The position numbers were made by a program, and so were the translations under genes. The notes beneath the pieces were generated by a model, which worked only from the letters and a program-made list of their open reading frames with translations, was not told where the DNA came from and made no database searches. From positions 1 to 63,295 of the forward strand of contig CAYYRT010000252.1 in the NCBI GenBank assembly GCA_964474055.1: a stretch of DNA of 63,295 nucleotides, in the 5' to 3' direction. Below, piece by piece: positions 17,596 to 57,321 of the stretch (position 1 is the stretch's first letter; the number at the start of each line of letters is the position of its first letter). Source of the DNA: an uncultured Acidimicrobiaceae bacterium (GTDB lineage: Bacteria > Actinomycetota > Acidimicrobiia > Spongiisociales > ZC4RG35).

Positions 17596-17613
17596 CCTGG
17601 TGGCTGGGACTGG

Positions 17614-18627: not shown

Positions 18628-18669
18628 GGTTTCCTGTCGACCAGGGCGAATCCCCTGAACGAAAGAACC

Positions 18670-19356: not shown

Positions 19357-19504
19357 TCGGGTGGTGCGGTCGGCCGAAAAGACAAGTGCGAGACGGTCTC
19401 GCCCTTATGGAGAGGGCCTGAATAGGGTTGCCCCGCGACGTGGAGGACGTTCGGGTGCCGCCACAGGCGCCCGAAGCTCCAAGTCTGCCCCTTTGGAGGG
19501 ATCA

Positions 19505-25550: not shown

Positions 25551-26578
25551 CCCTCGACACCCCACCAACTGGACTCGGTGGGCACCCCGCCGACTCAAGT
25601 CCAGCAGTATCGGTCGTAATTCCGACCTACAACCGCGTTGACACCCTGCCCCGAGCTGTCGCCAGCGTGATTTCACAGTCATTTAGCAACTGGGAACTCA
25701 TAGTTGTTGACGATGCTTCCAGTGACGACACCCCCTCGTATCTCGACTCTCTCGACGATCCTCGGATCAGAGCCATCCGACAGCCCTTCAACTTGGGAGG
25801 ATCGGCTGCCCGCAACGTTGGGATCAAGGCCGCGGTTGGCCAGTTCATCGCTTTTCTAGACAGCGATGACGAATGGCTCAACACCAAGCTGGAGAGACAG
25901 GTCCAGGCCATGGCCGATCCAAACACAGGGGTGGTTTACTCCGGGTACCTGGAACGGCACTCGGAAGGCATGCGGCAGGTGAGAGCCCGGGAGCCGTCAG
26001 ATTCGATGTTCGAACACATCATCGGGCTGCGGGGCGTTTCCAAGACCTCGGCGATTCTTGTTCGACGGACGATGCTCGATGCCACGAGGGTCTTTTTCGA
26101 TGAGACCCTTCCAGCCCATCAAGAGTGGGATTTCATGTGCCGCCTGGCGGCCCAACTTACGTTCAAAGCGGTTTCCGAACCTCTATTCATCCTCGATCGA
26201 ACTCCCCGGACGGATCGGGTCGGGGCCAGCATCAACAAGGTGAAAGCGGCCGAGCTGATCCTGACGAAGTATCAAAGAGAGCTGAGCCAGCGTCCGACCG
26301 CGGCCGCGACTCACCATTTCCAGGGTGCCCTGCATTACGCCAGCATGGGTGACGCCCTCGGGGCTCGCCGCCACCTGGCCGCCGCAATCAGGCTGGCGCC
26401 CCAGCGTAGGGCGTGGCGGATTCTCTATCTTGGGAGTTTCCTCGGGGATCGGCTGTTAAAGGCTCTGACCGTTCTTTACCGAACACCCAGCCGGTTGCGA
26501 AAACGCCCATTCGATAGTGACGCGATCGGGCGACAAGAGGAGAGTTCCCGCCTGCATACCCCGGACACCGGTCAATGA
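25547..26578 (+). CDS. Family-2 glycosyltransferase with helical C-terminal extension
   Basis: VSVVIPTYNR ... IVVDDASSDDT ... FLDSDDEW (DxD). Start is uncertain: TTG 25547 overlaps the upstream stop, and the listed ORF begins at 25472. Confidence 0.8.
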   Translation: MTLDTPPTGLGGHPADSSPAVSVVIPTYNRVDTLPRAVASVISQSFSNWELIVVDDASSDDTPSYLDSLDDPRIRAIRQPFNLGGSAARNVGIKAAVGQFIAFLDSDDEWLNTKLERQVQAMADPNTGVVYSGYLERHSEGMRQVRAREPSDSMFEHIIGLRGVSKTSAILVRRTMLDATRVFFDETLPAHQEWDFMCRLAAQLTFKAVSEPLFILDRTPRTDRVGASINKVKAAELILTKYQRELSQRPTAAATHHFQGALHYASMGDALGARRHLAAAIRLAPQRRAWRILYLGSFLGDRLLKALTVLYRTPSRLRKRPFDSDAIGRQEESSRLHTPDTGQ

Positions 26579-27402
26579 ACGGTCGCTTTCCCGACTTTTT
26601 GATTATCGGAGCAATGAAGGCGGGCACCACGACAGTATTCCGGTGGCTGGATATGCACCCTGGAACAGCCTTGCCGAAGGTCAAAGAACCGGCCTTCTTT
26701 GCCCACGACTACCAATGGGACCGTGGTCTTGATTGGTACAAATCCTTGTTTCCGGGCACCGATGACAACGTGACCGGTGAGGCATCGGTCATTTACACAC
26801 ACCCACGGTTCACAGACGCGGCAGCAGCCCGGATTGCTTCAGTCTTACCCGAGGTGAAAATCGTTTTCGTAGCTCGCGATCCAATCAAGCGGGCCCGGTC
26901 TCACTATGTCCATCAGGTTCAGAGGGGTCGAGAGACCCGTACCTGGGCCGAGGCCTCGAACGACCCTGCCAACCCTTACCTGGCCAGGAGCAGGTACTGG
27001 GCCTGCCTTTCCCCTTATGTTTCCCGGATCCAGAAGAAGCGGATTCACACGGTTTGGTTCGAAGAAGTGTTCTCCGAGGACGAGAGTGAATGGCTTCGAC
27101 TGCTCGACTTCCTAGGTCTCGCACCACATCCGCGTCCCGTCCAACAGTTCAATCAATCCTCGGAGTTCCTTGCTGTTCCATCGGCCTTGCGTCAGGTCGC
27201 TAAAAGTGTTGTCCCCCGAGTCTTCCCCGCGTCAATCCGCCGAATGGCCAAGGCGCGGTTGATCCGCAGTCGAGACGATGTGGGCAGGCTCATCGATTCC
27301 AGCCGTGAAGAGGTCGAAGTGGCGTCTGACGACTTGTGGGGGGATGTCGATTCGTTCTTGGCTTGGGCGGGGTCGCCCGGCCGATGGATAGAGCGAGATT
27401 GA
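26575..27402 (+). CDS. Sulfotransferase (ST3)
   Basis: FLIIGAMKAGTTTV PAPS loop and VARDPIKRARSHY 3'-PB motif. Its ATG overlaps the stop of the upstream GT2 gene. Confidence 0.85.
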   Translation: MNGRFPDFLIIGAMKAGTTTVFRWLDMHPGTALPKVKEPAFFAHDYQWDRGLDWYKSLFPGTDDNVTGEASVIYTHPRFTDAAAARIASVLPEVKIVFVARDPIKRARSHYVHQVQRGRETRTWAEASNDPANPYLARSRYWACLSPYVSRIQKKRIHTVWFEEVFSEDESEWLRLLDFLGLAPHPRPVQQFNQSSEFLAVPSALRQVAKSVVPRVFPASIRRMAKARLIRSRDDVGRLIDSSREEVEVASDDLWGDVDSFLAWAGSPGRWIERD

Positions 27403-28235
27403 CGGTGCCTGACCACGGACGACTTCCTGACTTTCTGATCATTGGTGCAATGCGCTCGGGAACCACCGCGCTGTCGAATTGGTTGGGGCAACACCCTGAC
27501 GTCTTCATAGCCCCAGGTAAGGAACTGCACTTCTTTGACCGCCACTTCGACATGGGTGTCGATTGGTATCGGTCCCAGTTCAAACGAGCCGGGGAGGCAA
27601 CAAGGCTGGCCGAAGCAACCCCGAACTACCTCCACGAACCTGAGGCGATCGAGCGGATCTCTCAGGTGATCCCCGAGGTCAAGCTGCTGATAATTCTCCG
27701 GAACCCTGTTGACCGCGCTTATTCCCACTACTGGCACAACCAGTCGCGTGGTAAGGAGAGCCTGTCGTTCGCTGAAGCGATCGAGGCCGAACAGGCTCGC
27801 ATTAGCTCCGACAAAGCGAATCGGGCGTTCTACTCCTACGCAAGCAGGGGGCATTACATAACCCAGCTTGATGAGGTGCTGAGTCGGTTTCGAAGGTCTG
27901 CCCTGCATGTTGAGATTGCAGAAGAATTCTTTTCTGATCCAGAACGAAGGTTGCCGATAATCTTCCGATTCCTCGACATCGACCCAACCTTTGTGCCATC
28001 GAAAGTGGACGAACGAATCAACAGATTCGTTGAGTTCCGATCCGTCCGGCTCCGCGCGTTCTCCAAGCGCCTGCCTGGGGTCGCGGCAGGAGTCATCGGT
28101 CGGCTCAACGTGAGATCCGGATCCGATTATCCGCCGATGGAACCAATCGTCCGCGCCCACCTCGAATCGGTGTTCGAAAGGAGCAACCAGCGTTTAGCCA
28201 CACTCTTGGACCGAACAGGCCCAATCTGGGGTTAA
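27384..28235 (+). CDS. Sulfotransferase (ST4)
   Basis: FLIIGAMRSGTTAL and ILRNPVDRAYSHY. ATG 27384 overlaps the end of ST3. Confidence 0.85.
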   Translation: MDRARLTVPDHGRLPDFLIIGAMRSGTTALSNWLGQHPDVFIAPGKELHFFDRHFDMGVDWYRSQFKRAGEATRLAEATPNYLHEPEAIERISQVIPEVKLLIILRNPVDRAYSHYWHNQSRGKESLSFAEAIEAEQARISSDKANRAFYSYASRGHYITQLDEVLSRFRRSALHVEIAEEFFSDPERRLPIIFRFLDIDPTFVPSKVDERINRFVEFRSVRLRAFSKRLPGVAAGVIGRLNVRSGSDYPPMEPIVRAHLESVFERSNQRLATLLDRTGPIWG

Positions 28236-29398
28236 TACCGCCCAGTGCGGATCACTGAACGATATAACTCCGCCATACGATCGGCTATCGCCTCGATTGT
28301 GTACTGCTCGCGAAATCGCTGCTGACCTCTCTGACCCAGGCGATCGGCCAACATGGGGTCGTTCAACAAGGTCCTCATACCCTCCGACAACTGAAAAGCT
28401 GAACTTGCTGGCACCAGGAACGCTCCCCCTTCCCCGGCCACCTCCCGAAGGGGAGGCAAATCTGACGCTACGACCGGAATCCCCATCGCCATTGCTTCCA
28501 GCATCGCCCCGCCAAATCCCTCGAACAGGCTCGGGAATGCGAATATGTCGGAGGCCGCCAAAAGGTCACCGACATCCTCTCTGTGTCCGAGCAGTGTGAT
28601 CGCCGACGAGAGTTCGAGGCGCTGGATTGCGGCTTCCAGTTCCCGAGATACGCTCCCCTCGCGGCCAGCTATGAGAAGCCGCGTGTTCGGATGCTCCGCG
28701 AGGATTAGAGGCATCGCCTCGATGAGAAACCGTTGTCCCTTCTGGTATTCCTGGCGTCCGACTGTCAACAAGACGGACTGATCGTTATCGAGACCGAGAC
28801 TTGCGCGAACACGTTGACGTCGTTCGGGAGAGGGCTCCCCCAACCTTTCCTGGCTCCGTCCTCTCCCAACAACCGATATCCGATCAGCATCGACGCCCAA
28901 ATGGTCTTGCACCGATTCACCGACTGCTCGCGTCAGAACGTGGACGCGAGCTGTGAGGTGTCGGGCGGTCCAGCCGTCAATCATCCTGGTGACCTTCAAG
29001 CGCCACGGTCGAACACGCGGATCGGACGTTCGCGCCGTGTCATAACTCATATTGACAATGCTGGACAACACCGGAGTGCCGGTGCCGATAGCGGCCGACC
29101 GCCCCAGCACATCCGATTCGAATATCGACGTGTGCACCAGATCGAACTGACCTTGGACGATCCTTCGCCGCAGAGATCGCCAACGGCCAAACCAGCTAGA
29201 CGAGCCCAGAACTTCTACGCGGAGTTGATCACTAATCAGCTCGGCCACACCCTCCGATCGATCGAACAGGCAAACAACCTCGAGGGAGACTCCACGATCC
29301 CTCAGCGGTTGAGTCAGTTCGAGGAACGATCGCTCAGCACCTCCTGTGCCGAGTCCGTTGATGACATACAAGACCCTCAAGGCCGGACTAAAGACCAT
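28232..29398 (-). CDS. GT-B fold (family-4-like) glycosyltransferase
   Basis: LRVLYVINGLGTGGAE N-terminus and C-terminal FPSLFEGFGGAMLEAMAMGIPVV (E-x7-E region). Confidence 0.85.
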   Translation of the reverse strand: MVFSPALRVLYVINGLGTGGAERSFLELTQPLRDRGVSLEVVCLFDRSEGVAELISDQLRVEVLGSSSWFGRWRSLRRRIVQGQFDLVHTSIFESDVLGRSAAIGTGTPVLSSIVNMSYDTARTSDPRVRPWRLKVTRMIDGWTARHLTARVHVLTRAVGESVQDHLGVDADRISVVGRGRSQERLGEPSPERRQRVRASLGLDNDQSVLLTVGRQEYQKGQRFLIEAMPLILAEHPNTRLLIAGREGSVSRELEAAIQRLELSSAITLLGHREDVGDLLAASDIFAFPSLFEGFGGAMLEAMAMGIPVVASDLPPLREVAGEGGAFLVPASSAFQLSEGMRTLLNDPMLADRLGQRGQQRFREQYTIEAIADRMAELYRSVIRTGRY

Positions 29399-30383
29399 AC
29401 CCCAGCGCCACAGATGAAGGGCAATAGCTCAGGGCGAGCGAGTCCAGATCGGGTCGTTGCGGCTGAGGGGACCGGTGAATCGGAATCCGCGGTGTCGACG
29501 GCAACGTGACCCCGAGGAAACTGCTGATCTCTTTCAGCACATTGATTGGTTCGGTCTCCCACCGCTCGTACCGAACCGCCAGAACGTTCTCGTTTCCCAG
29601 GAATGGTGCGATCCGAGAATTGATGTACTCGTAGAGGAGTGCCCGGCGAATTCTCGAGTCGTCGGTCGCTTGCCTGAGGTGTGCATTCATTTTCCGATGG
29701 AAAGCTACGTCGTATTCAAGTCCTTGAGCCAGGCGTCCCCCCACTCTTTCGAACGACGTCAGCACCTCCACCGGATGCCTCACGCACACGATCATGCGCG
29801 TGCGCGGGAGCAGTGGCAGGTATCGCCAAAAGCCCGGCCACTTCACTCCGAGCGAGTATCCCTCGCTCATTTCCAGGGGCACCGATTGCTGCCGGTCCCG
29901 CCGCCACCTCACCTCCCCTGCTTCAAGACCTTCGATGTCGAGGCGTCCACGGGCCAGGTGCTTGCTCTCATCGATCTCGTGGCGGATCGAGTCAAAGAGG
30001 TCCGCTGGCGGTAGTTGAAGCCCGTCCCAAGGCTCCATGCAGACAACCGAATCGGGGGGGTTAAAGAGAAGGGCCGCCACCAGCGAGGTGCCCGAACGGG
30101 GGCAACCCACGATCATGAAGTCGCGGTCATTCGGTTGCCTTAGCGGCAATGGCAAGGTGTCGGGATCGAGGCGACAACGCGCCAACAATCTCTGCCAGCG
30201 GATCCATTCCAACGACCGGCCGATCGGATTCACGACTGATTCGTCCGGAGCACGCGCAGACACCCAATTACCATGAGCCACCATGCTTCGGCTTGCGGTC
30301 CGCAGATCCACCGAGCGGATATTCGACTCGCTGGCAGGCAGCAGGGCGCTTGGCAAGGTGGCAGCCGCAGTCACGGCCGGCAA
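29388..30383 (-). CDS. Sulfotransferase (ST5)
   Basis: FMIVGCPRSGTSLV PAPS loop and CVRHPVEVLTSF. The 5' end overlaps the divergent deacetylase ORF, so the internal start near 30284 (MVAHGNW) is an alternative. Confidence 0.7.
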   Translation of the reverse strand: MPAVTAAATLPSALLPASESNIRSVDLRTASRSMVAHGNWVSARAPDESVVNPIGRSLEWIRWQRLLARCRLDPDTLPLPLRQPNDRDFMIVGCPRSGTSLVAALLFNPPDSVVCMEPWDGLQLPPADLFDSIRHEIDESKHLARGRLDIEGLEAGEVRWRRDRQQSVPLEMSEGYSLGVKWPGFWRYLPLLPRTRMIVCVRHPVEVLTSFERVGGRLAQGLEYDVAFHRKMNAHLRQATDDSRIRRALLYEYINSRIAPFLGNENVLAVRYERWETEPINVLKEISSFLGVTLPSTPRIPIHRSPQPQRPDLDSLALSYCPSSVALGYGL

Positions 30384-31245
30384 ACTCCGTGTTCTTTGCT
30401 ATCACGATGTTCCGGACAAGGAGCGATTCGCCCGTCAGATGGCGATAGTCGCCAACGAGTACACACCCGTCTCTAGTGGAACTGTGGCGGCAGCCTTCCG
30501 GAACAGGTCTGCCTTGCCTGCGCGGGCGGTCTGGGTCACATTCGACGACGGCGACCCGTCGGTGGTCACAAACGGTGTTCCAGTGTTGTCCGCATATGGA
30601 ATTAGAGCTACCTGTTTCGTCTGCCCGGGCGTGATCGGCACGCGACTTCCATTCTGGTGGCAGATCGTCCAGCACGCCGCAACCATCGGGGCAAATAATG
30701 AGCGACCATCCGAGCCTCCGGCAGCGCTCGTTGGTCGTCTCAAAGAAATGCACGACGGTGATCGCCGTAGCGCGGTGCTTAAGCTCGCATCCGCGATCGA
30801 GCGCATCGAAAAAAGGGAATATTCCAGGGATCAGATGTCCATCGATGATCTCCGAATCTTCGCCGCGGCCGGAGGTGACATTGGGAACCACACCTGGGAC
30901 CACCCGATGCTGAATCAGTGCGAAGAGGATGAACAGCGTCGGCAAGTGCTGATGGCCCACGAGTGGCTGACGGAGTCGGGTCTGCCCTGGCCGGGGCTGT
31001 TTGCGTATCCAAACGGGAACGCCACCCCTTATGTGGGCGGCCTGCTCGGGAGCCTCGGCTACGGCCTTGCGACCCTCTTCGACCATCGGATCGGGCCTGT
31101 CTCCGGAAACCCGTTCCTCGTGTCGAGGCTTCGTGTAAGCGCATCTGAGAGTATTCCCCGCTTTCGGGCCATACTTTCGGGACTGCATCCTGCCGCCCAT
31201 TTGCTGCGCAACCGCAACCTCAGCACATCGGCCCGAACGACTTGA
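30283..31245 (+). CDS. NodB-type polysaccharide deacetylase
   Basis: VLCYHDV, VTFDDGDPS (motif 1), ATCFVCPG, and NHTWDHP (His motif). Confidence 0.8.
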   Translation: MLRLAVRRSTERIFDSLAGSRALGKVAAAVTAGKLRVLCYHDVPDKERFARQMAIVANEYTPVSSGTVAAAFRNRSALPARAVWVTFDDGDPSVVTNGVPVLSAYGIRATCFVCPGVIGTRLPFWWQIVQHAATIGANNERPSEPPAALVGRLKEMHDGDRRSAVLKLASAIERIEKREYSRDQMSIDDLRIFAAAGGDIGNHTWDHPMLNQCEEDEQRRQVLMAHEWLTESGLPWPGLFAYPNGNATPYVGGLLGSLGYGLATLFDHRIGPVSGNPFLVSRLRVSASESIPRFRAILSGLHPAAHLLRNRNLSTSARTT

Positions 31246-31271
31246 TGAGGCGCTTCTCCGTACTCGCCCAG

Positions 31272-32060
31272 TCACAGCTCTCGATAACCTCTGACCAACC
31301 GGCGCAAGCGCTCCTCTGCGCGCAAACCCCAGTTCATCCTGGCCCCGAAAAACCTCATCCCGTCTGACTTTTGGATCGGCACCCGCGCCAAACGATGGTG
31401 ATCCCTACTCGTTTCGGGCCGGATGGGTGCGCCCACCGCCGCAGTCTCGAACCTGGGTCGGACGATCTTGTCGGCACTGCTTGACCAATACCCCCATGGG
31501 TAGGCGAAGTGGCTCGGTGCAACTTGAGTGCGAAGCTCGATCAGCCGATCCGACTCCTCAAGCTCCCACCGTATCGACTCGGGGGAGGACTGGCGCAAGT
31601 CCGGGTGAGTGTGGGTATGACTACCAAGTGTCAGGAGGCCCGAGGACAGCATCTCCAATATTTGATCCCAGGTCAACGGCAAAGCTCTGTGATCCGAAAG
31701 CGGCGTGCCCGTCTCGACGGGCCCGGTCGTAAGGTAGAGGGTGAACGGCAGCCGGCGTTCGAGAAGATGAGGAAACGCCGTGTCATAGAGATCGCGGTAT
31801 CCATCATCGAAGGTCAGAACGGCGATGAGGTCCCCGTTGGCGGGCCCCCCCGCCAGGGCCGAAGCGAGGTCAACAACTCTGCCGTTTTCGCGGAGCCAAT
31901 CGAGCTGGCCCACGAAGTCCCGCTCGGACACCTCCATCTCGCGACCGAAGTCAACACCTACCTGGTGGTAGATCAGTATCCGGGGACCCCGCAGCTTCGG
32001 TGTTAACCGGTCAATCGTGGCAAACACGGACTTCGCTGCTTTGCGAGAACCTTGCGCCAT
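31272..32060 (-). CDS. NodB-type polysaccharide deacetylase
   Basis: ILIYHQV, LTFDDGYRDLY, FTLYLTTG, GSHTHTHPDL. Confidence 0.8.
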   Translation of the reverse strand: MAQGSRKAAKSVFATIDRLTPKLRGPRILIYHQVGVDFGREMEVSERDFVGQLDWLRENGRVVDLASALAGGPANGDLIAVLTFDDGYRDLYDTAFPHLLERRLPFTLYLTTGPVETGTPLSDHRALPLTWDQILEMLSSGLLTLGSHTHTHPDLRQSSPESIRWELEESDRLIELRTQVAPSHFAYPWGYWSSSADKIVRPRFETAAVGAPIRPETSRDHHRLARVPIQKSDGMRFFGARMNWGLRAEERLRRLVRGYREL

Positions 32061-34769
32061 TTATCCAGTCGGTCGGAGCGACTGCAACTCTTCCTCGGTG
32101 AGAACCGGGGATGCAAGCAATCCCAATCGCTGCAAAGGAGCGATATTCGGCTTCACCCCTTCGGACCAAACGGGATCCCAACCATGGGGCTGTTGATCAG
32201 GGCGCTTCCATGGATACACGATGCGGGCATTGGGAGTAGTGCCCTCATACAGCCAACCGAGGGCGATCTCAAAGGTCCGGGTGTCGGTTAGTTGTTCGCC
32301 AAGTCGCTCAACTGCCTCAGCCCGACCCGCCCGCACAGCGGACTTGAGGCTTCGTTCGAGACTATCGATAGTCAAGCTGACCACCCCGGTGTTGAGCTCG
32401 TCGATTCGCTCCCGCGTGAAGCGGGAGGAATTGACAAGCACCTGGACCGTCCCGAGCCGGCTGGCGAGATGCCAGATAGAAGGTTCGTAGCTGGTGCTAC
32501 TCAAGTGGCGGAGGAAGAACTCCTGCGCCAGCCAATCATCGATCGACTGATTGGGCGTTCCTGATCCTTCGCTAAGCACCTTGACCAGCTCTCCAGCCAA
32601 TCGATTGCCGAGGCGGCTCCCAAGTTGGACCCGGAACTCTGCGGCGAGGTGCCCACCGATTGACTGTACGCCCTTGATCTCATGAAGCGGCATATAGCCG
32701 TGTCGGGCCGCAGCGATGACGTCCTCGGAAAAGTCGCTGTTCCCGGGAGTTGCGTTGATCATCCCCGTTGTCCAGTCCATCAGAAATGATGCAACCTTCT
32801 CGTATGCCCCGTCTTCTGCGTCGGCGAGGATGCCCAACAACTCGGCCCCGCGAGGGGAGTCGGCCGCCGGATGACCGGGAACGATTCTCAACTCATCGCG
32901 AATATTTCGTCCCACTGCCGCGGCTCCCTTGGCCGGCCCGCCCGCTACAACGTTGCGCTGTTTCGTCGAGCCTGGCGATAGGGACACTCGTGCTGCCGTG
33001 GCCGACTTCGATGGTGTCGGCTCGTCGCCTTCATTTGCGTCGGCCGCTCGCAGAACAACGCTGCCTTCGTTGGCCCCAACCGGCCCAGGCTCGACGTCCT
33101 CACGCAAAACGGGACGGGAGTGGTCGACCGGTGCACCCTTGCGTGCGAGGAACACAGCGCCGAGGAACGCAACCCGGCGATCAGTCATTTCCTGAACCAG
33201 GTCTTCGATAACGGCTGCCGGAGTCCGACCGGGGACCAGGCAAATGATGCCGACGTCCATGCGCTGGAACAGGACTTGCCCCGGAGGAGACTGCAGGTCC
33301 CCGCCCACCAACAACACCAAGTCGTGACGTGCCTTTGCCTCCTCCATGAACACCTGAAAAATGGTCCCTGACAAAGCGTCCGCTGGAGACTCGAGTCCGG
33401 TCCCTGCGCCGATGACAGACAGGTTGGCCCGGAGAACCAATGCCTTCTCCAAGGCGTTGGTCGATGCGTGGCGCGCACCTTCGGCGTCATCCGGTCGTCG
33501 ATCGAGAATCTCCGCAAGCGTCGGTCCCGCCCCTTTGATTTCGTTGGGGCGCGAACCTCCTTCCAGTTCAGCGTCCACGACCAGAACTGACCATCCGGCG
33601 TTGGCGAAGCTGGCCGCTAGATCGAGTCCAGCCATTTGTACAGCTGTCGAGGTTGTGCTGATACCCGCCACAGCCAGCGCAATGGGCCTGCTCTTAAGCC
33701 GACCCTCCACGGCGGCACGCATAGCCTGGATGGCCTGTTTGCGGGGATGACGCGCCTCGCGGTCGTACCACAGTTTGCCTGCCTCGACATGAAGTCGCCG
33801 GGACGGAATGTCACCCAGGACGGGCAGGCTCAGGTCAGCAGGTACCCAGGCGGGACGGCGGGTCCTTGTGTCGATGGTTATAGCAAGGATGGCCAGGACG
33901 ATTCCCACCAGAAGCCCCAACAACCCGTTGAAGACGATGCTGGGGGGTGGTGGGGTCAGGTCCGCGACGGTTACGGCGCCCGAGAAGCCACCTGAAGTAA
34001 CACCCAATTGGCGCAGATACAGCCTCTCGTACTCGTCGGCCAGGACTTCGAGGCGATTCTCGATCGCTTGCTGTCTGAATGCCACACTCGGGGCATCCGG
34101 TATCAGCGGAGGCAACGACGCCTTTTCGGTGGCCAAACGAGTGAGAGCGGCGTTTACCTGGTTGCGCTCCAGCGCATTGGCTGAAGCCTCGATCTCGGTA
34201 GCGGTCACATCGAGAACCGCCAGGTCAACAAGGCGCTGCCGAAGAATCAGGACTTGGCTGTCGATGAGTGCGTGTTGATCGATCACAGTTTGGTCGGCAA
34301 GACCGAGCGAATCCAGCTCGTCAGACAAGCGATCAGCCTCTGACTCGATTTCCGCTAGCCGACCGGCAACCGGAGCACCTCCCGCCAGGGGATCCACATC
34401 GAGGAAAGCCTGTCGCAGTTCAGTGGCGTCCTCGACCGCGTCGCCCTGTGATGAGTCCGCTGCGACAAACAGAAGCTCGGCGGTGACGGTGTTGGCAACG
34501 ATAAAACGGTCGGTGGGATCCTCGGCCAGAAGCGCTCCGGCCGCCAGCAATGCCGACTCTTCTGCGTCGAGCAACTCGGTGGCAGCGTCCGCAGCTTGCT
34601 CGCCAGAGGGAATCTGGAATTGGATCGGGGCCGTGGCCTCGAAGCGCGTTTCACGCCCGCCTTCGGCAATGACTGTGAAAACCCCGGCCGTCACCAAACC
34701 GAAGATTGCGAACGCCAAGGCGACCGGCCAGCGGTCGCGGAAGGCTCGAACTAGCGGATTCAGCTCCAC
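32061..34769 (-). CDS. Wzz/PCP-like chain-length-determinant protein with degenerate BY-kinase-like domain and a ~330 aa C-terminal domain of unknown function
   Basis: Two TM helices bracket a long coiled region. A MinD/BY-kinase-like segment follows (VLVVDAELEGG, DLVLLVGGDL), but the Walker A position reads AGISTTSTA with no GK[ST]. The remaining C-terminal third has no motif I recognise. Confidence 0.65.
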   Translation of the reverse strand: MELNPLVRAFRDRWPVALAFAIFGLVTAGVFTVIAEGGRETRFEATAPIQFQIPSGEQAADAATELLDAEESALLAAGALLAEDPTDRFIVANTVTAELLFVAADSSQGDAVEDATELRQAFLDVDPLAGGAPVAGRLAEIESEADRLSDELDSLGLADQTVIDQHALIDSQVLILRQRLVDLAVLDVTATEIEASANALERNQVNAALTRLATEKASLPPLIPDAPSVAFRQQAIENRLEVLADEYERLYLRQLGVTSGGFSGAVTVADLTPPPPSIVFNGLLGLLVGIVLAILAITIDTRTRRPAWVPADLSLPVLGDIPSRRLHVEAGKLWYDREARHPRKQAIQAMRAAVEGRLKSRPIALAVAGISTTSTAVQMAGLDLAASFANAGWSVLVVDAELEGGSRPNEIKGAGPTLAEILDRRPDDAEGARHASTNALEKALVLRANLSVIGAGTGLESPADALSGTIFQVFMEEAKARHDLVLLVGGDLQSPPGQVLFQRMDVGIICLVPGRTPAAVIEDLVQEMTDRRVAFLGAVFLARKGAPVDHSRPVLREDVEPGPVGANEGSVVLRAADANEGDEPTPSKSATAARVSLSPGSTKQRNVVAGGPAKGAAAVGRNIRDELRIVPGHPAADSPRGAELLGILADAEDGAYEKVASFLMDWTTGMINATPGNSDFSEDVIAAARHGYMPLHEIKGVQSIGGHLAAEFRVQLGSRLGNRLAGELVKVLSEGSGTPNQSIDDWLAQEFFLRHLSSTSYEPSIWHLASRLGTVQVLVNSSRFTRERIDELNTGVVSLTIDSLERSLKSAVRAGRAEAVERLGEQLTDTRTFEIALGWLYEGTTPNARIVYPWKRPDQQPHGWDPVWSEGVKPNIAPLQRLGLLASPVLTEEELQSLRPTG

Positions 34770-36691
34770 GTTGTGACAGGTTCGATGACCCGCAAATCCA
34801 GCGTTTCGGAGATAGCAGTCAAGCCCAGAGTCATCTCCGTCAGGATATCGCGAATCAACGCCCTGTTACCCAAGGAGGCCGCGTCCACCAACCGTGCCAC
34901 ACCTTCCCCAACAGCCAGGGCTCCTGGATGCACCGGCTCGGCCACTGAAATAGCCGGGTGTCGCGTCGGTTCCATGGGGTACTCGGCCAGGACTTCGTTG
35001 AGCTTCTCGCCACGGCGCCGGCCGGTGAACACGATCGGAATGTCCCGGTCGGGGGCCAGACCGGCGAGCCGGATCAGGCGGCGGGCAAGGTCGACGATAC
35101 GTACAGGTTCGCCCATGTCGAGGACAAATACCTCCGAGCCTTTGGCAAGAGCCGCAGCCTGGAGGACCAGTTGAACTGCCTCATCCACCGTCATGAAATA
35201 GCGAGTCATGCTGGCCTCGGTGACTGTGACGGGACCACCCCGCTTCACCTGTTCGACGAACGTCGGGACCACGCTTCCCCGACTGCCGAGGACGTTCCCA
35301 AAGCGCACTGCCGTGTATTGGCACCCATCGCGCCTTTGGTTGCCCACCTGCACCAGCATCTCGGCTACTCGCTTGGTGGCTCCCATCACGCTGGCCGGGT
35401 CAACTGCCTTGTCGGTTGATATCAATACAAAGCGCTCCACTTTCGACACAGACGATGCATCGATGAGGTTCAAGCTGCCCTGGATGTTGGTTAACACTGC
35501 CTCCTCGGGAAATTCCTCGAGTACCGGAACGTGTTTGAGAGCAGCGGCGTGAAAGATGACCTCGGGCCGAATCTCTGCAAAGACCCGGAACAATCGAGTC
35601 CGGTCGCGAATGTCACACAGGATGCGGCTGACCGGCTGGTTCCAAACCATGCTGGCATCGTGCAGCAACGTTTCGTCCCGGTCGAGCGCAAAGACCGCTG
35701 CTGGCTCGTAGCTCAAAACCTGGCGGACGATCTCCGACCCGATCGATCCTCCGGCGCCAGTCACCAGAACACGTCGGCCCGCCACCAGACCACCGACCTC
35801 GGTCATATCGGTAGAAACCGGCGGTCGCACCAACAAGTCGTCGATCTGGATATCGCGCGCATCAAGGTTGGTTGAACGGCCAAGCATCACGTCTTCTGCG
35901 CCCGGCAGGATGCGCAGCCGGACATCGATGTCGAGGCATCGGTCGACCACGCGTCGGGCCCGCTCCGGTCCTCCCCCGACCACTACCACCTGGTCGACTG
36001 CCCACTGTTTGATGATCTCTTCGAGTTGGTCAATTGATCCGAGAACCGGCAGGCCAGCGAGACGTCGAACCTCGGAATGAAAGGCGTACGACTCCGCAAC
36101 AAACCCAACTACCTCGCCGCCGGCGACGAGTTCTGGAGCTTCGCGGGCAAACGCCGCGGCGGCGCGTCCGTTGCCAACCACAAGAATCCTTGACCCCGCG
36201 GGCGACCTCTTGCGGAAAGAAAACAGCCTGGACCGGAATCTGACCAGTCCCATTCCGGCCAGCGACAAGAGCCCACCGAGGATGATGGTTGCGTATGGCA
36301 CCACGGGCCCAATCCCCAGGTCGCGAAGGACGTTGGAGAGGACTAGAAGTGCTGCGATAGCAAGACCGGCCGAAATCGCTACCTGGCGAGCCTCGGCCAG
36401 GCTGGCATGTTCCCAAACGTGACCATATGCGCCAATGAGGATGTTGAGACCGATGTGGACCGCGACGATCACGGGCAACGAGTCGACCAGGTCGACCCAA
36501 TACTTCTGGGCTGTGCCCACGAGCGGGTCAAGCATGCGAAAGCCCAGGCCGAGCGCATAAGCACCCATGATGATGAATACGTCAATCAGGGCAAATACCA
36601 AATCGGCCCGCAGCCGCGAGGCCGCCCCGGCCACTTGTCGCCGCCACTCCGGCATCGCCTCGAGACCCGTTGTCAATCGCCCACCCAACAC
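34760..36691 (-). CDS. Membrane-anchored CapD/WbpM/PglF-type nucleotide-sugar 4,6-dehydratase
   Basis: Four N-terminal TM helices. Two Rossmann regions (ILVVGNGRAA; VLVTGAGGSIGSEI). Family-typical STDKAV and YTAVRFGNVLGSRGSV motifs. Confidence 0.85.
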   Translation of the reverse strand: MLGGRLTTGLEAMPEWRRQVAGAASRLRADLVFALIDVFIIMGAYALGLGFRMLDPLVGTAQKYWVDLVDSLPVIVAVHIGLNILIGAYGHVWEHASLAEARQVAISAGLAIAALLVLSNVLRDLGIGPVVPYATIILGGLLSLAGMGLVRFRSRLFSFRKRSPAGSRILVVGNGRAAAAFAREAPELVAGGEVVGFVAESYAFHSEVRRLAGLPVLGSIDQLEEIIKQWAVDQVVVVGGGPERARRVVDRCLDIDVRLRILPGAEDVMLGRSTNLDARDIQIDDLLVRPPVSTDMTEVGGLVAGRRVLVTGAGGSIGSEIVRQVLSYEPAAVFALDRDETLLHDASMVWNQPVSRILCDIRDRTRLFRVFAEIRPEVIFHAAALKHVPVLEEFPEEAVLTNIQGSLNLIDASSVSKVERFVLISTDKAVDPASVMGATKRVAEMLVQVGNQRRDGCQYTAVRFGNVLGSRGSVVPTFVEQVKRGGPVTVTEASMTRYFMTVDEAVQLVLQAAALAKGSEVFVLDMGEPVRIVDLARRLIRLAGLAPDRDIPIVFTGRRRGEKLNEVLAEYPMEPTRHPAISVAEPVHPGALAVGEGVARLVDAASLGNRALIRDILTEMTLGLTAISETLDLRVIEPVTTWS

Positions 36692-36956: not shown

Positions 36957-38318
36957 ATGAAAGAGGGCGTCCTCTGGGGTTTCGGAGCCGTGGTCACGGT
37001 TGCTCTGGCGGGCCTGCTGGGGGTCGGGGCAGGCGAAGTGATGGTGCTCGCGTTCACTCCTCTAATGGTGTTGGGGATGGTCGGAGTAGGTCGCATGCTC
37101 GCCCGACCGGTCGACCAGAATTGGCTCCCGACCCTTGTGGTGCTCGGGTTTCTGGCCAAGCTGGCAGGCGCCGGGGCCCGTTACTACTTCGTCCGTTACG
37201 TCTACGCCAGCGGCGATGCTTTTGGCTACTACCGGGTCGGCATGGAGTTCGCCGAACAATGGCGGGCAGGAAACCCGCCTGGTTTGAGTGGCAACCGCGG
37301 CGAAGGCACCCAGGCCATGGAGGCCATCGCGGGCGTCGTCTTCACACCCTTCATGCCCGACTTCCTCGGAGGCTTCTTCCTCTTCGCCGCACTCTCCTTC
37401 TTTGGCCAGTTGGCGCTCTATGCAGCCTTTCGCCGGTGGGCACCCGGCTATCAGCTCAAAGCATTCGCCATCTTCATCTTTTTCCTCCCCAGCTATGTGT
37501 TCTGGCCGTCGAGTATCGGCAAAGACGCCGTGATGCTGCTTGGTCTCGGGCTGGCGGCGTACTGCATGGCGCGATTGTTGGAGGCGTTCGCAATCCGCTG
37601 GCTGGTGGCTTTGGGCCTGGCCCTGGCGGGAATCGGATTTGTGAGGATCCACATCTCAGCCCTTGTGATCGGATCACTCCTACTGACCGCTCTCATCGCC
37701 AAGTCGCGTGTTTGGAGCCCGGGACTCGCGCTTCGAAAGACAGCTGTGATAGGTGGGATCGTGTTTATTGGGATCCTGTCGTTGAGCGTATTTCAAGAGC
37801 GATACGGCGCAAATCCCCTCGACACCGATGAAATTGCCTCTTTCTCGGAAGGCGTCGTTGATCGAACATCACAAGGTTCGATCGTGCCGGGGGGGGCCGT
37901 GAGTAGCCCGGCCGATGTACCGGAGGCAATCGTGCTGGTCCTCTTCAGGCCGTTCCCATGGGAGGGAGGCGACCTCCAGGTGAGAATGGCCGGTCTGGAA
38001 ACCAGCCTCCTTCTCGGCCTCCTGGTTTGGAAACTGCCCGCCATGTTCCGCAACCGAAAGCGCTGGCGTTCCAACTCGCTGGTCGTGTTCTCTACCTTCT
38101 ACGTATTCGCCTTCTGTATCGCATTCAGCGTGATCCGCAATCTGGGGATCATCGCCCGTCAACGCACCCAGGTGCTGGCATTCCTCCTGATCATCATCAT
38201 CGCCCTCGGATGGGAACAGAAGACGGGACCAAGACGCCTCACCGGTCACACTTCCAACACGATCGATGAGCGCCAACTGGCACTGACCGAAGGTCGGCCG
38301 GGCCAGGGATTCTCCTAG
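36957..38318 (+). CDS. Polytopic membrane protein (candidate glycan polymerase/ligase-like)
   Basis: 453 aa with >=10 predicted hydrophobic helices and one larger loop. Located at the head of an operon with ST6. No diagnostic motif seen. Confidence 0.45.
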   Translation: MKEGVLWGFGAVVTVALAGLLGVGAGEVMVLAFTPLMVLGMVGVGRMLARPVDQNWLPTLVVLGFLAKLAGAGARYYFVRYVYASGDAFGYYRVGMEFAEQWRAGNPPGLSGNRGEGTQAMEAIAGVVFTPFMPDFLGGFFLFAALSFFGQLALYAAFRRWAPGYQLKAFAIFIFFLPSYVFWPSSIGKDAVMLLGLGLAAYCMARLLEAFAIRWLVALGLALAGIGFVRIHISALVIGSLLLTALIAKSRVWSPGLALRKTAVIGGIVFIGILSLSVFQERYGANPLDTDEIASFSEGVVDRTSQGSIVPGGAVSSPADVPEAIVLVLFRPFPWEGGDLQVRMAGLETSLLLGLLVWKLPAMFRNRKRWRSNSLVVFSTFYVFAFCIAFSVIRNLGIIARQRTQVLAFLLIIIIALGWEQKTGPRRLTGHTSNTIDERQLALTEGRPGQGFS

Positions 38319-38321
38319 CCG

Positions 38322-39224
38322 GTGACTGGGCCTCCATCGCTTCAGGACCGCATCGCCTCGGCCATGTCGGTCGCCACCCGCCGCCGCATCAATATGATGC
38401 GGATCGCCCTCCGTACGCCGATGGCCGGCGGTCGCTCTTGGCCCGACTTCATCGTCATCGGTACCCAAAGGGGTGGGACCAGTTCCCTCTTCAAGTACCT
38501 GTCCTTCCATCCCGAGATCGTCCCGTCGGTCCGCAAGGAGATCGAGTACTTCAACCGATACCTGAGCGAGCACGGACCCAAGTGGTACCGCTCGCACTTT
38601 CCCAGCGAGGCGCGCAGAAGACGTGCTTTGCAAGCCGGCCGCCCATTCGCGACCTTTGAGGCATCTCCGACGTATCTCGATCATCCTCATACCCCGGCGG
38701 CGGTTGCCCGCCTGATGCCGGACCTGAAGCTCATCGTCTTGTTGAGGGACCCCTTAGCCAGAGCCCACTCGCACTACGAGCACATGGTCAGGTTGGGCAT
38801 GGAGCCCTTTCCCTTTGCCCAGGCGGTGCGCTTTGAAGAGGACCGCATTGGCGAAGAGCGATCGAAGGTGTTTGCCGACCCTCTCTATTACTCCCGTCCC
38901 TATACGAGGTACTGCTACGCCTACCGGGGCTTCTATGCGGACCACCTGGGCCGCTGGCTCGATCACTTCGACCGGGCGCAACTGTTGGCCCTCCGCAGTG
39001 AGGACTTCTACTCAGACCCAGCCGCCAGCCTCGGCCGCATCCTCTCGTTTATTGGAGTCGACCCCGACTGGCGACCGGCCGAGTTCGCCAACTTCAGCTA
39101 CCGAAGTGGCCAGAAAGCCGACTACGAGGAGATGGACGCGGCCTCAAGACGCTTCCTCGAGGAGAAGTTCGGACCTCACAACGAACGCCTCATCAAACTA
39201 TTGGGTCCGGAGTTCTCATGGTGA
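38322..39224 (+). CDS. Sulfotransferase (ST6)
   Basis: FIVIGTQRGGTSSL PAPS loop and LLRDPLARAHSHY 3'-PB motif. Confidence 0.85.
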   Translation: MTGPPSLQDRIASAMSVATRRRINMMRIALRTPMAGGRSWPDFIVIGTQRGGTSSLFKYLSFHPEIVPSVRKEIEYFNRYLSEHGPKWYRSHFPSEARRRRALQAGRPFATFEASPTYLDHPHTPAAVARLMPDLKLIVLLRDPLARAHSHYEHMVRLGMEPFPFAQAVRFEEDRIGEERSKVFADPLYYSRPYTRYCYAYRGFYADHLGRWLDHFDRAQLLALRSEDFYSDPAASLGRILSFIGVDPDWRPAEFANFSYRSGQKADYEEMDAASRRFLEEKFGPHNERLIKLLGPEFSW

Positions 39225-53761: not shown

Positions 53762-53773
53762 CAAACTCCTCAA

Positions 53774-57283: not shown

Positions 57284-57321
57284 GTGTCGGTCTGACGTCA
57301 CCGAGGTAGAATCGCCTGGGA

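Follow-up and report, generated by a model that had tools for sequence, protein, structure and literature searches.

The sulfotransferase ST5, the deacetylase DEAC1 and the glycosyltransferase GT4a, encoded side by side in a 63,295-nucleotide stretch of DNA from an uncultured Acidimicrobiaceae bacterium (the window), very probably act on one amino sugar of a heavily sulfated surface polysaccharide, as judged from family matches, predicted folds and gene order. An earlier note had read ST5, DEAC1 and a second deacetylase, DEAC2, as a possible joint deacetylation and N-sulfation system. The observation is confirmed and the interpretation holds in part, for the coupling of ST5 to DEAC1 and not for the role given to DEAC2.

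Features of the window discussed in the text, with coordinates, strand and basis of assignment
Feature	Coordinates	Strand	Basis
Sulfate activation/supply: ATP-sulfurylase/APS kinase, SLC13-type transporter, CysQ-like PAP phosphatase	100..3473	plus	Pfam
Other sulfotransferase genes	17614..18627; 38322..39224		Pfam
Two further sulfotransferase genes	26575..28235	plus	Pfam
GT4a, GT4 glycosyltransferase, third member of the triad	28232..29398	minus	Pfam Glycos_transf_1/Glyco_transf_4
ST5, PAPS-dependent sulfotransferase	29388..30263	minus	public gene call; alternative ATG 30284; mechanical ORF to 30383
Region of the back-to-back ST5 and DEAC1 starts	30263..30284		sequence, candidate starts
DEAC1, CE4/NodB-type metal-dependent deacetylase with conserved ~75-aa helical insertion	30283..31245	plus	predicted cytoplasmic; ORF intact
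DEAC2, second CE4 deacetylase, ORF intact, last gene of the capD/Wzz-like operon	31272..32060	minus	PF01522
Wzz-like 902-aa membrane protein (co-polymerase/BY-kinase-like)	32061..34769	minus	weak EpsG/eps_fam/MPA1 matches
CapD/PglF-type membrane-anchored UDP-HexNAc 4,6-dehydratase	34760..36691	minus	Polysacc_synt_2 347 bits; NCBIfam PseB/FnlA-like
Polytopic membrane protein, candidate polymerase or ligase	36957..38318	plus	same-operon conservation
WecA/MraY-family initiating phosphoglycosyl transferase	41294..42232	minus	Pfam Glycos_transf_4; NCBIfam WecA-like
GT4-GNAT fusion, usual neighbour of DEAC2 orthologs elsewhere	42239..43984	minus	Pfam
GNAT48255, GNAT (Acetyltransf_9) protein	48255..49205	plus	Pfam
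DegT/LegC-like sugar aminotransferase	54397..55515	plus	Pfam, NCBIfam, synteny

Genes and predicted proteins of the locus

The public gene call for ST5 gives a 291-aa protein starting at GTG 30263, and the longest mechanical ORF (29388–30383, minus strand) matches Sulfotransfer_3 at 47.5 bits (cut-off 27) and also Sulfotransfer_1 in Pfam. In the family alignment (A1), residues G60, R63, G65 and T66 of the 5'-PSB loop and E84 of the MEPWDG motif are invariant, together with K148 and the 3'-PB pair R169...S177. The candidate base glutamate lies 21 residues past the PSB arginine, which is the catalytic-base position common to NST, HS3ST and TPST (PMC11625862). The AF2 model of ST5 (pLDDT 90.9 overall, below 50 for residues 1–16) has a PAPS-sulfotransferase fold in structure comparison. 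Its similarity to the N-sulfotransferase domain of NDST does not exceed that to tyrosylprotein, polyketide (CurM-ST) and 3-O-sulfotransferases (TM ~0.4 for all), with NDST1 ranked 15th and 1NST 33rd (TM ~0.43). The family is narrow, its orthologs sharing 42–64% identity.

DEAC1 matches Polysacc_deac_1 (PF01522) in two stretches at 74 bits (cut-off 23.1), and residues D88-D89, H203/H207, Y242-P243, D267-H268 and R282 are invariant in its family alignment. The solved folds nearest to its AF2 model (pLDDT 94.7) are the GlcNAc de-N-acetylases IcaB, PgaB, PplD and BpsB (TM normalised to the target 0.64–0.80); esterases scored far lower, and the best 50 folds included neither Agd3 nor an NDST deacetylase domain. 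On the strand opposite DEAC1, a 335-aa ORF (30268–31275) has no family match and was rejected as a gene. No transmembrane segments were found in ST5, DEAC1, DEAC2 or GT4a, and both ST5 and DEAC1 look cytoplasmic, where PAPS is available.

The 5' overlap of ST5 and DEAC1 described earlier (30283–30383, 101 bp) was confirmed in its coordinates, but it concerns only the longest mechanical ORFs; the genes themselves diverge from probable start codons lying end to end (−2 to +19 bp). In the ST5 family the conserved core starts only at W30, and the first 30 residues of DEAC1 are conserved and folded with confidence. Because the N-terminus of ST5 is poorly conserved and poorly modelled and that of DEAC1 is conserved and folded, we place the two starts back to back, either 19 bp apart or in a common CATG palindrome. 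Given such starts, each gene would have its promoter within the other, unless the mRNAs are leaderless; no sigma-70-like site was found in 29900–31500.

GT4a and the end of ST5 share 11 nt. The matches of GT4a to BshA, MshA, PglA/H/J and PEP-CTERM 'stp2' glycosyltransferases all fall far below the cut-offs; its donor sugar is not readable from sequence, a point against our preferred explanation. DEAC2 matches Polysacc_deac_1 at 80.7 bits and has IcaB (4wcj, E 2e-15) as its closest PDB sequence. It does close the capD/Wzz-like operon, as previously suggested, since the capD and Wzz-like ORFs share 10 nt and the Wzz-like stop is followed at once by the ATG of DEAC2 (32060). The name wzz is loose for this protein, which has two hydrophobic segments, weak chain-length-determinant/tyrosine-kinase matches and no Pfam match. 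The polytopic protein has no Pfam or NCBIfam match; it shows at least six separate hydrophobic stretches, some merged, leaving the helix count uncertain, and has orthologs in L011, L014, L017, L018, L021, L023 and L031. Overall, the locus encodes the functions required for a sulfated, lipid-linked glycan: PAPS supply, an initiator resembling WecA, a CapD/DegT route to amino sugars, several glycosyltransferases of the GT4 and GT2 families, five or more sulfotransferases, and export components of the Wzm/Wzt and Wzz-like types.

Conservation of gene order

Gene order was counted in 30 informative ST5 loci and, separately, around 30 DEAC1 orthologs. A GT4a ortholog directly follows ST5 (≤120 bp) in 25 of the 30 ST5 loci. 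A DEAC1 ortholog, defined by a profile score >245 bits, is found no more than 4.3 kb from ST5 in 22 of them, and in 16 the distance is at most 300 bp. The tightest partner of ST5 is the downstream GT4a and not the deacetylase. Some CE4 gene is near ST5 in 24 loci; the other six have none within 10 kb. The ST5–DEAC1 loci span at least five phyla (Actinomycetota, Chloroflexota, Gemmatimonadota, Planctomycetota and Rhodothermia-type Bacteroidota), which bears out the proposal that ST5 and the plus-strand deacetylase form a functional pair. Their divergence exceeds chance, because the same arrangement recurs in eight loci (L001, L003, L006, L016, L041, L046, L053 and L056) and co-directional versions, with DEAC1 upstream or downstream, occur in many more. 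The co-directional operon of many genomes runs DEAC1 > ST5 > GT4a > GT4 > GNAT > membrane protein > DEAC2 > GT4-GNAT > WecA, and DegT/LegC-like aminotransferase orthologs (57–69% identity) flank the triad in several loci. Such synteny shows common pathway membership, not reaction order.

The association is strongly asymmetric, with DEAC1 near ST5 at a frequency of ~0.73 and ST5 near DEAC1 at ~0.2. ST5 adjoins only about 6 of the 30 DEAC1 orthologs, and at about 10 its place is taken by a GNAT ortholog. The amine may accordingly be re-acylated after its release, or stay free. Orthologs of GNAT48255 come right after DEAC1 in loci lacking ST5 (L058, L063, L064, L066 and L069) and are kept in the ST5-containing co-directional operons (L011–L031). 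In a rough tree, the part around the window's DEAC1 mixes sequences with and without an associated ST5. A natural GT4a–DEAC1 fusion (P0270; 41% identity to GT4a and 37% to DEAC1 across their full lengths) occurs without ST5 in a cultured Acidimicrobiia bacterium, and one ST5–GT4a fusion (P0242) was found. Two large protein searches (together 1.84 billion representatives, 5.8 billion clusters) returned no clean CE4–ST5 fusion; P0241 and P0275, the only ORFs that seem to join the two, have the look of frameshift artefacts. The DEAC1 family is also fused to methyltransferase and Acetyltransf_6 domains.

DEAC2 orthologs are missing from most ST5 loci and, where present, lie several kb away, directly upstream of the GT4-GNAT fusion. 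They adjoin GT4-GNAT in L012, L014 and L021, with full-length GT4-GNAT orthologs following in L012 and L014, and come after a Wzz-like gene in L044. On this distribution, DEAC2 is not part of the deacetylation and sulfation logic of ST5; it belongs to a parallel, separate module, in which it would work with the GT4-GNAT fusion.

A proposed module and its alternatives

We propose that GT4a, DEAC1 and ST5 constitute one conserved cytoplasmic 'add, de-N-acetylate, sulfate' module. GT4a would transfer an N-acetylhexosamine from a UDP-sugar to an undecaprenyl-linked oligosaccharide. DEAC1, in view of its family, its intact catalytic residues, the folds closest to it and the absence of export signals, would remove the N-acetyl group of this putative substrate at the cytoplasmic face, as proposed for HfsH in the Caulobacter holdfast, and ST5, given its PAPS motifs and fold, would sulfate the de-N-acetylated unit, its presumed acceptor, with PAPS. 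In the single most likely full version of this proposal, ST5 would O-sulfate the de-N-acetylated sugar or a neighbour, and the amine would stay free or be re-acylated by GNAT48255. We consider coupling of the three at the level of a module probable, and hold the O-sulfation version tentatively, at slightly less than an even chance.

O-sulfation of the de-N-acetylated unit seems somewhat more likely than N-sulfation because most DEAC1 orthologs lack an ST5 and many have a GNAT directly downstream, because the GNAT is kept alongside ST5, because six ST5 loci lack a nearby CE4 gene, and because neither a specific likeness of ST5 to NST nor a clean CE4–ST5 fusion was found. The alternative of a split bacterial N-deacetylase/N-sulfotransferase, in which a GlcNAc added by GT4a would lose its acetyl group to DEAC1 and the exposed 2-amino nitrogen would be sulfated by ST5 with PAPS, is possible but doubtful. 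Besides the observations just listed, it is opposed by the constancy of GT4a as partner of ST5, the interleaved DEAC1 tree and the artefactual look of P0241 and P0275; moreover, NodB and NodH are a deacetylase and a sulfotransferase of one pathway in which the sulfate is on oxygen. Yet ST5 is seldom found without DEAC1 or some other CE4 gene, the two enzymes share the cytoplasm, the fold neighbours of DEAC1 are de-N-acetylases, and ST5 carries its invariant glutamate at the base position of NST, HS3ST and TPST. The slot right after the deacetylase in DEAC1-family loci holds either GNAT or ST5, and the methyltransferase and Acetyltransf_6 fusions suggest that the freed amine is normally derivatised. 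The ST5/DEAC1 asymmetry, too, is also expected if ST5 needs the amine itself as acceptor, which counts against the O-sulfation version. The locus plausibly makes three amines, through DEAC1, DEAC2 and DegT, and has three candidate amine modifiers (ST5, GNAT48255 and the GNAT domain of GT4-GNAT), a count that fits N-sulfation equally well. Chemical studies of bacterial exopolymers report N-sulfated hexosamine, for which no enzyme is known (PMC7356697, PMC10483923).

The genes could also be neighbours only, with ST5 decorating another residue of the glycan and travelling with GT4a, while DEAC1, GT4a and GNAT deacetylate and re-acylate. The tighter ST5–GT4a adjacency, the wide occurrence of DEAC1, GT4 and GNAT without ST5 and the ST5-free fusion P0270 fit such an arrangement, but we find it improbable given that no more than 300 bp separate ST5 from DEAC1 in 16 loci, where ST5 often stands between DEAC1 and GT4a within a single operon, and that this order persists across phyla whose remaining locus differs. 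It is very improbable that DEAC1 and DEAC2 have nothing to do with the glycan and instead cleave O-acetyl esters or deacetylate peptidoglycan: CE4 does include acetylxylan esterases and peptidoglycan deacetylases, and weak PgdA and PdaB model matches occur, but neither protein has a signal peptide or transmembrane segment, both genes are embedded in and co-inherited with glycan-assembly genes, P0270 joins CE4 to GT4, and the top structures are polysaccharide de-N-acetylases.

Relation to known systems

In the model proposed for the Caulobacter holdfast, the CE4 enzyme HfsH, which is soluble and cytosolic, de-N-acetylates lipid-linked precursors before export and the exposed amines are then acylated by HfsK, a GNAT (PMC5362036). 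The DEAC1/GNAT48255 and DEAC2/GT4-GNAT pairings resemble HfsH/HfsK, although DEAC1 and DEAC2 reach only 29.8 and 25 bits against the HfsH equivalog cut-off of 400, DEAC1 carries its conserved insertion, and the paper's description of the holdfast pathway reports no sulfotransferase or PAPS genes, which are present here (PMC5362036).

NDST, the bifunctional enzyme that makes N-sulfated heparan sulfate in animals, likewise combines a metal-dependent (beta/alpha)-barrel Asp-His-His deacetylase with a Glu-base PAPS sulfotransferase and targets a HexNAc freshly installed by a glycosyltransferase (PMC10864358). The deacetylase domain of NDST1 is itself a metal-dependent (beta/alpha)7 fold with an Asp-His-His triad, homologous to fungal Agd3 (PMC10864358; PMC13353177), which makes the earlier wording 'analogous, not homologous' doubtful. 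DEAC1, however, is of the IcaB/PgaB type and not Agd3/CE18-like. NDST is one fused protein that N-sulfates a Golgi polymer, whereas ST5 and DEAC1 are separate and would act in the cytoplasm on a lipid-linked substrate, and N-sulfation by ST5 is hypothetical.

In Nod factors the sulfate is 6-O-linked, the amine is acylated and the substrate is a free chitooligosaccharide, in contrast to the lipid-linked repeat unit proposed here. NodC/NodB/NodA/NodH likewise unite a glycosyltransferase, a CE4 de-N-acetylase, an amine re-derivatiser and a Sulfotransfer_3-type sulfotransferase in one cytoplasmic pathway, but DEAC1 scores only 32.7 bits with the NodB model (cut-off 240). The assignment of NodH to the Sulfotransfer_3 type follows PMC11625862. 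PgaB, IcaB, BpsB and PplD share the catalytic motifs of DEAC1 and DEAC2 and supply the closest folds (DEAC1) and PDB sequences (DEAC2); these four enzymes, however, work on exported polymer beyond the cytoplasm and have export signals or extra domains, which DEAC1 and DEAC2 lack, and the scores of both fall far short of the PgaB and IcaB cut-offs. In the MshA/MshB, BshA/BshB and PIG-A/PIG-L pairs, a GT4 enzyme installs GlcNAc and a deacetylase then exposes the amine. GT4a has weak BshA and MshA matches, but those deacetylases belong to the LmbE/PIG-L family and not to CE4, and their acceptors are small molecules or phosphatidylinositol.

We propose that this locus of ~45 kb serves the production of a multiply sulfated, lipid-linked surface glycan. 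If ST5 were to sulfate the nitrogen freed by DEAC1, that lipid-linked glycan would contain an N-sulfoglucosamine residue.

Gene boundaries and surroundings of ST5 and DEAC1

The window is a segment of bacterial chromosome (~60% GC) in which glycan-assembly genes fill the region from ~12 kb to 57 kb. The three ORFs from which the earlier note had built its idea of a split N-deacetylase/N-sulfotransferase, namely the sulfotransferase ST5 and the CE4 (NodB-type) deacetylases DEAC1 and DEAC2, are all present where it had placed them, and their Pfam matches all exceed the cut-offs. The genes around them support a role in the formation of a sulfated surface glycan.

Features of the window, with coordinates and family matches
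Feature	Coordinates	Strand	Match or remark
ATP-sulfurylase/APS kinase, SLC13 transporter, CysQ-like phosphatase	window start
Lipoate ligase-lipoyl synthase ORF	8281..9927	-	548 aa; LplA/B catalytic domain, radical-SAM lipoyl synthase
Four further clear sulfotransferases	17614, 26575, 27336, 38322
Weak sulfotransferase match	18670..19356	-	Sulfotransfer_2, E 0.003
Overlapping sulfotransferase ORFs	26575..27402, 27336..28235	+	longest ORFs
GT4a	28232..29398	-	GT4 glycosyltransferase
ST5, longest ORF	29388..30383	-	Sulfotransfer_3 and Sulfotransfer_1, above cut-offs
DEAC1	30283..31245	+	Polysacc_deac_1, above cut-off
DEAC2	31272..32060	-	Polysacc_deac_1, above cut-off
Wzz-like membrane protein	32061..34769	-	902 aa
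GT4-GNAT fusion	42239..43984	-	GT4 with C-terminal GNAT
NTP_transf_5-GT4 fusion	43981..46170	-	uncharacterised nucleotidyltransferase with C-terminal GT4
GNAT48255	48255..49205	+	GNAT protein
Two acyl-CoA dehydrogenases	50152..51273, 51971..53773
C-methyltransferase region	56327..60781	+	Methyltransf_13/14 twice
Wzm/Wzt-like ABC transporter genes	within window
GT2 and GT4 glycosyltransferases, including both GT4 fusions	within window
WecA-like initiator, CapD-type dehydratase, DegT/LegC-like aminotransferase	within window

The 5' overlap between ST5 and DEAC1 described in the earlier note exists between the longest mechanical ORFs but not between the probable genes. ST5 is 291 aa long in the public gene call, with GTG 30263 as its start codon and ATG 30284 as an alternative; conservation in the ST5 family begins at W30, and the ST5 model is disordered over residues 1-16. 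The DEAC1 N-terminus from ATG 30283 is conserved and helical with high model confidence. From the public call, the conservation and the models, the two starts stand back to back, sharing a CATG or lying up to 19 bp apart, and the called-gene spacing in related divergent loci is 34 and 134 bp. A promoter scan of the divergent region, of a kind that covers Actinomycetota-type promoters poorly, gave no sigma-70-like site, and the divergent transcripts may be leaderless. The coding strand in the 101-bp overlap, and against an ORF antisense to DEAC1, was chosen by conservation and family matches; GC by codon position did not discriminate the strands, as the stretch is short and the values too similar. 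The antisense ORF (30268..31275, minus strand, 335 aa) lies fully opposite DEAC1 and matches no Pfam family; it is not a gene but a shadow ORF, of a kind common in high-GC DNA.

CapD, the Wzz-like gene and DEAC2 adjoin or overlap one another and so form an operon, in agreement with the earlier assignment of DEAC2 to a capD-wzz operon. The Wzz-like protein itself has no Pfam match, two hydrophobic segments and a weak BY-kinase/EpsG-like stretch at residues 366-540, and its C-terminal ~350 aa match no family. Elsewhere in the window, the GT4-GNAT and NTP_transf_5-GT4 fusions adjoin each other, as they also do in two other loci (L041 and L064). The C-methyltransferase region encodes an 821-aa protein with two tandem sugar C-methyltransferase units and a luciferase-like monooxygenase on each side. 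The lipoate ligase-lipoyl synthase ORF adjoins 2-oxoacid dehydrogenase E2 and E3 genes. The weak Sulfotransfer_2 match could be a sixth, divergent sulfotransferase, and the second ORF of the overlapping sulfotransferase pair, which share 67 nt, probably starts later than GTG 27336.

Active sites and folds of the sulfotransferase and the deacetylases

ST5 scores 47.5 and 39.1 bits against PF13469 and PF00685 (cut-offs 27 and 22). Across 27 homologs its 5'-phosphosulfate loop (G60, R63, G65 and T66) and 3'-phosphate pair (R169...S177) are invariant, as are K148 and E84, the latter in MEPWDG, 21 residues past R63. E84, the candidate base, corresponds in position to the catalytic Glu of NST, HS3ST and TPST. 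A Glu catalytic base is common to these three classes (PMC11625862). The AF2 model (pLDDT 90.9) has 103 Foldseek matches in the PDB at E <= 1e-3, and the best 50 listed are all sulfotransferases. By profile, nucleotide-binding motifs and predicted fold, ST5 is thus classed as a PAPS-dependent sulfotransferase. The family is tight, at ~280-300 aa and 42-64% identity, and at E <= 1e-30 comprises only 37 clusters (50% identity) among 1.84 billion representatives.

The fold similarity is generic, with TM scores of 0.30-0.44 query-normalised and up to 0.51 target-normalised. The best matches are a bacterial structural-genomics sulfotransferase, TPST1/2 and CurM-ST, and NDST1 and 1NST, ranked 15 and 33, reach the same TM of 0.43 as TPST, CurM-ST and HS3ST. 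Fold or sequence similarity is therefore uninformative for separating N- from O-sulfotransferases, since all classes score TM ~0.3-0.45; a sequence search of the PDB yielded no NST match to ST5.

DEAC1 and DEAC2 score 74 and 80.7 bits against PF01522 (cut-off 23.1). DEAC1 keeps D88-D89, H203/H207, Y242-P243, D267-H268 and R282 unchanged, or almost so, across 30 homologs, and between its motifs 1 and 2 it has a conserved insertion of ~75 aa. Its AF2 model (pLDDT 94.7) matches IcaB, PgaB, PplD and BpsB at E 1e-12 to 1e-10; these top folds are de-N-acetylases of GlcNAc-containing polymers, with the CE4 esterases 2cc0 and 7fbw ranking much lower. The DEAC2 translation carries TFDD, HTHTH and AYPWG, and its best PDB sequence match is IcaB. 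Profile and catalytic motifs, and for DEAC1 also the predicted barrel fold, place both proteins among the CE4 deacetylases. DEAC2 shares only ~23-26% identity with DEAC1 orthologs. Neither they nor ST5 and GT4a contain a hydrophobic segment of transmembrane strength, so all four proteins are expected in the cytoplasm, together with PAPS and lipid-linked intermediates.

Conservation of the GT4a-DEAC1-ST5 neighbourhood and natural fusions

Relatives of ST5 were collected from 35 loci, found by exact look-up of the protein (3 loci) or in species-representative genomes (32 loci); counts refer to the 30 informative, non-duplicate loci, onto which the window proteins were mapped and in which all ORFs were searched with a DEAC1 profile. 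The 35 loci come from Acidimicrobiia, Ilumatobacteraceae, other Actinomycetota (among them Nocardioidaceae, Euzebyaceae and Actinomadura), Caldilineaceae, Gemmatimonadota, Bythopirellula (Planctomycetota) and Rubricoccaceae. Actinomadura fulvescens is a culturable carrier of ST5 alone. A GT4a ortholog (43-52% identity) immediately follows or precedes ST5 in 25/30. The pairing of ST5 with DEAC1 that the earlier note had proposed is borne out, with a DEAC1 ortholog (> 245 bits) within 4.3 kb of ST5 in 22/30 loci and within 300 bp in 16/30. A DEAC2-type CE4 is the only one in 2/30, and six of the 30 (L019, L024, L026, L027, L033 and L034) have no CE4 within 10 kb of ST5. The divergent arrangement of the window recurs in L001, L003, L006 and L016, while eleven loci have co-directional DEAC1>ST5>GT4a and six have DEAC1 downstream; the association thus outlasts rearrangement. 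The genes make up a single operon in Caldilineaceae, Planctomycetota, Gemmatimonadota, Rubricoccaceae and some Actinomycetota, in the order DEAC1, ST5, GT4a, GT4(s), GNAT48255, a polytopic membrane protein (that of 36957..38318 in the window), DEAC2, GT4-GNAT and WecA, and the window is a dispersed version of this gene set.

AMP-dependent ligases, an acyl carrier protein, a phosphopantetheinyl transferase and an acyl-CoA dehydrogenase flank the triad in L002 (1..8000 and 17371..20072) and L003 (4430..8962), so that the same glycan may bear an acyl substituent of an unusual kind. The window also encodes acyl-CoA dehydrogenases (table).

The earlier note had included DEAC2 in its possible split logic, and here the comparison points elsewhere. 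DEAC2 orthologs are present in few ST5 loci, at a distance of 4.6-9 kb from ST5; a full-length GT4-GNAT ortholog lies directly downstream of DEAC2 in L012 and L014, and a match to the GT4 part only in L021, while the L018 locus ends right after DEAC2. In L044 a Wzz-like gene precedes DEAC2 as in the window. This rarity and the position beside GT4-GNAT argue for a separate, parallel unit of GT4, deacetylase and amine modifier, and against a second input to ST5.

The reverse view was obtained by scanning metagenome contigs with the DEAC1 profile and mapping the window proteins around ~30 DEAC1 orthologs (>= 36% identity). Most have a GT4a-like GT4 beside them, ~10 have a GNAT48255 ortholog nearby, often immediately downstream (L058, L063, L064, L066 and L069), and only six are accompanied by ST5 (L040, L041, L046, L053, L056 and L065). 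The frequency of DEAC1 given ST5 is thus ~0.73 and that of ST5 given DEAC1 ~0.2. A rough NJ tree of the DEAC1 orthologs, star-like and unsupported, shows a clade of co-directional operons, all with ST5, and a mixed clade that includes the window, a hint that the ST5 association of DEAC1 may be facultative.

Natural fusions join the same partners. P0270, from the cultured acidimicrobiian Salinilacustrithrix flava, is a GT4a+DEAC1 fusion with full-length identities of 41% and 37% to the window proteins, and P0242 is an ST5+GT4a fusion known from one case on a single 2.7-kb contig. SAM methyltransferases, a methyltransferase plus Acetyltransf_6 (FemAB/HfsK-type) and GT2 are further fusion partners of DEAC1-type domains (P0243, P0190, P0244, P0245, P0269 and P0250), and they hint that the amine which these deacetylases expose usually undergoes further derivatisation. 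In the library of 1.84 billion proteins, the relative of ST5 with the highest score is P0271 (779 aa), which runs from an N-terminal SAM methyltransferase through a P-loop-containing region of ~300 aa to a full ST5 domain.

Fusions of CE4 to ST5 were sought with a concatenated DEAC1+ST5 query and with an ST5 profile against the 1.84 billion representatives, and neither search returned a robust case; the only two apparent ones look like frameshift artefacts. P0241 (734 aa) stems from an error-prone contig with ST5 split between frames, for which a frameshift is the best explanation, and P0275 (497 aa) lacks both the N-terminal catalytic half of DEAC1 and the conserved N-terminal helix of ST5. 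Contig L116 (5000..13000) carries the same gene set (GT4, GNAT, ST5, DEAC1, GT4a and further sulfotransferases) with frame changes throughout, which account for the false 734-aa 'GT-ST-CE4' protein in a public collection.

Proposed module and destination of the sulfate

The families, intact active sites, confident folds, absence of export signals, local PAPS supply, three-gene neighbourhood and GT4a-DEAC1 fusion together indicate that GT4a, DEAC1 and ST5 are probably coupled as one module. GT4a would add a HexNAc to an undecaprenyl-linked oligosaccharide, DEAC1 would de-N-acetylate that residue at the cytoplasmic face, for which HfsH is a precedent, and ST5 would then sulfate the de-N-acetylated unit. 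The donor sugar of GT4a could not be predicted from PDB and NCBIfam matches, which are mixed and below cut-offs. It is improbable that ST5 works independently of DEAC1 on another residue, and highly improbable that the CE4 proteins act outside the ST5/GT4a pathway altogether.

Where the sulfate goes within the module is a closer question. O-sulfation is the default chemistry of carbohydrate sulfotransferases. Together with the position of GT4a, rather than DEAC1, as the closest partner of ST5, the retention of GNAT in ST5-containing operons, the ST5 loci that lack a CE4, the want of specific NST likeness and the missing robust CE4-ST fusion, this makes us lean, tentatively, towards an ST5 that O-sulfates the unit while the amine is left free or re-acylated. 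The same observations weigh against a split prokaryotic N-deacetylase/N-sulfotransferase, in which the triad would make N-sulfoglucosamine on a lipid-linked glycan and would have spread by gene transfer across at least five bacterial phyla. This reading, possible though on the unlikely side, draws on how strongly ST5 depends on DEAC1 and on the slot after DEAC1, where ST5 and GNAT alternate. It also draws on the tendency of DEAC1-family deacetylases to be fused to amine-modifying domains, and on the equal numbers in the locus of plausible amine sources and candidate modifiers, three of each. GNAT48255 itself matched nothing in the PDB or NCBIfam.

The nearest system in its way of working is HfsH/HfsK of the Caulobacter holdfast, where HfsH is a cytosolic deacetylase of the holdfast precursor and the GNAT HfsK is proposed to acylate the exposed amines (PMC5362036). 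DEAC1 and DEAC2 resemble HfsH as cytosolic CE4 enzymes on precursors but not as family members, scoring 29.8 and 25 bits against its equivalog NF050820 (cut-off 400 bits). No score against the PgaB, IcaB or NodB equivalogs of NCBIfam exceeds the cut-off either; the best is that of DEAC2 against PgaB (56.5 bits, cut-off 321.9), and DEAC1 scores 32.7 bits against NodB (cut-off 240). In logic, the triad comes nearest to NodC/NodB/NodA/NodH and animal NDST. NDST, however, carries both domains on one polypeptide, whereas ST5 and DEAC1 are separate divergent genes; DEAC1 is not of the NDST/Agd3 type, as the Pfam scan gave only PF01522 and the best 50 folds include neither NDST nor Agd3, and ST5, by its fold ranks, is not specifically NST-like. 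The pair thus falls outside NDST on every testable defining feature. The deacetylase domain of NDST1 is a (beta/alpha)7 metal-dependent enzyme with a His-His-Asp triad, homologous to fungal Agd3 (PMC10864358), and its mechanism is common to CE-family deacetylases (PMC13353177). The earlier wording 'analogous, not homologous' consequently needs softening, as this mechanism is shared and both sulfotransferases have the same PAPS fold.

ST5, DEAC1 and GT4a are each new members of known families, and their conserved GT4-CE4-sulfotransferase combination is a new form of a known glycan-tailoring logic. No bacterial glycan N-sulfotransferase is described in the literature that we searched, nor is this triad. 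N-sulfated hexosamine polymers have been reported chemically from Pontiella (75-80% N-linked by nitrous acid; PMC7356697) and granular sludges (PMC10483923), and the authors of both reports called the bacterial pathways and sulfotransferases unknown. In 2026 sulfated polysaccharides were described as, among bacteria, essentially cyanobacterial, in a paper that proposed one in Actinoplanes without chemistry (PMC13390465). In heparin biomanufacture the want of a bacterially expressible NDST is called the bottleneck, and artificial CE4/NDase-NST fusions are being engineered, one of which a 2026 paper had to construct (PMC13353177).

The analysis defines a narrow ST5 family, which in uncultured Acidimicrobiia, Caldilineaceae, Gemmatimonadota, Planctomycetota and others is linked through synteny with one particular deacetylase and glycosyltransferase, and offers a concrete three-enzyme set for a direct test of N-sulfation. 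If ST5 is an O-sulfotransferase, the triad would be one more glycan-tailoring module for the catalogue, useful yet ordinary. If it N-sulfates, the triad would provide a bacterial-native alternative to animal NDST, relevant to heparin biomanufacture, and the missing enzymology of the N-sulfated 'glycosaminoglycan-like' exopolymers of Pontiella and granular sludges.
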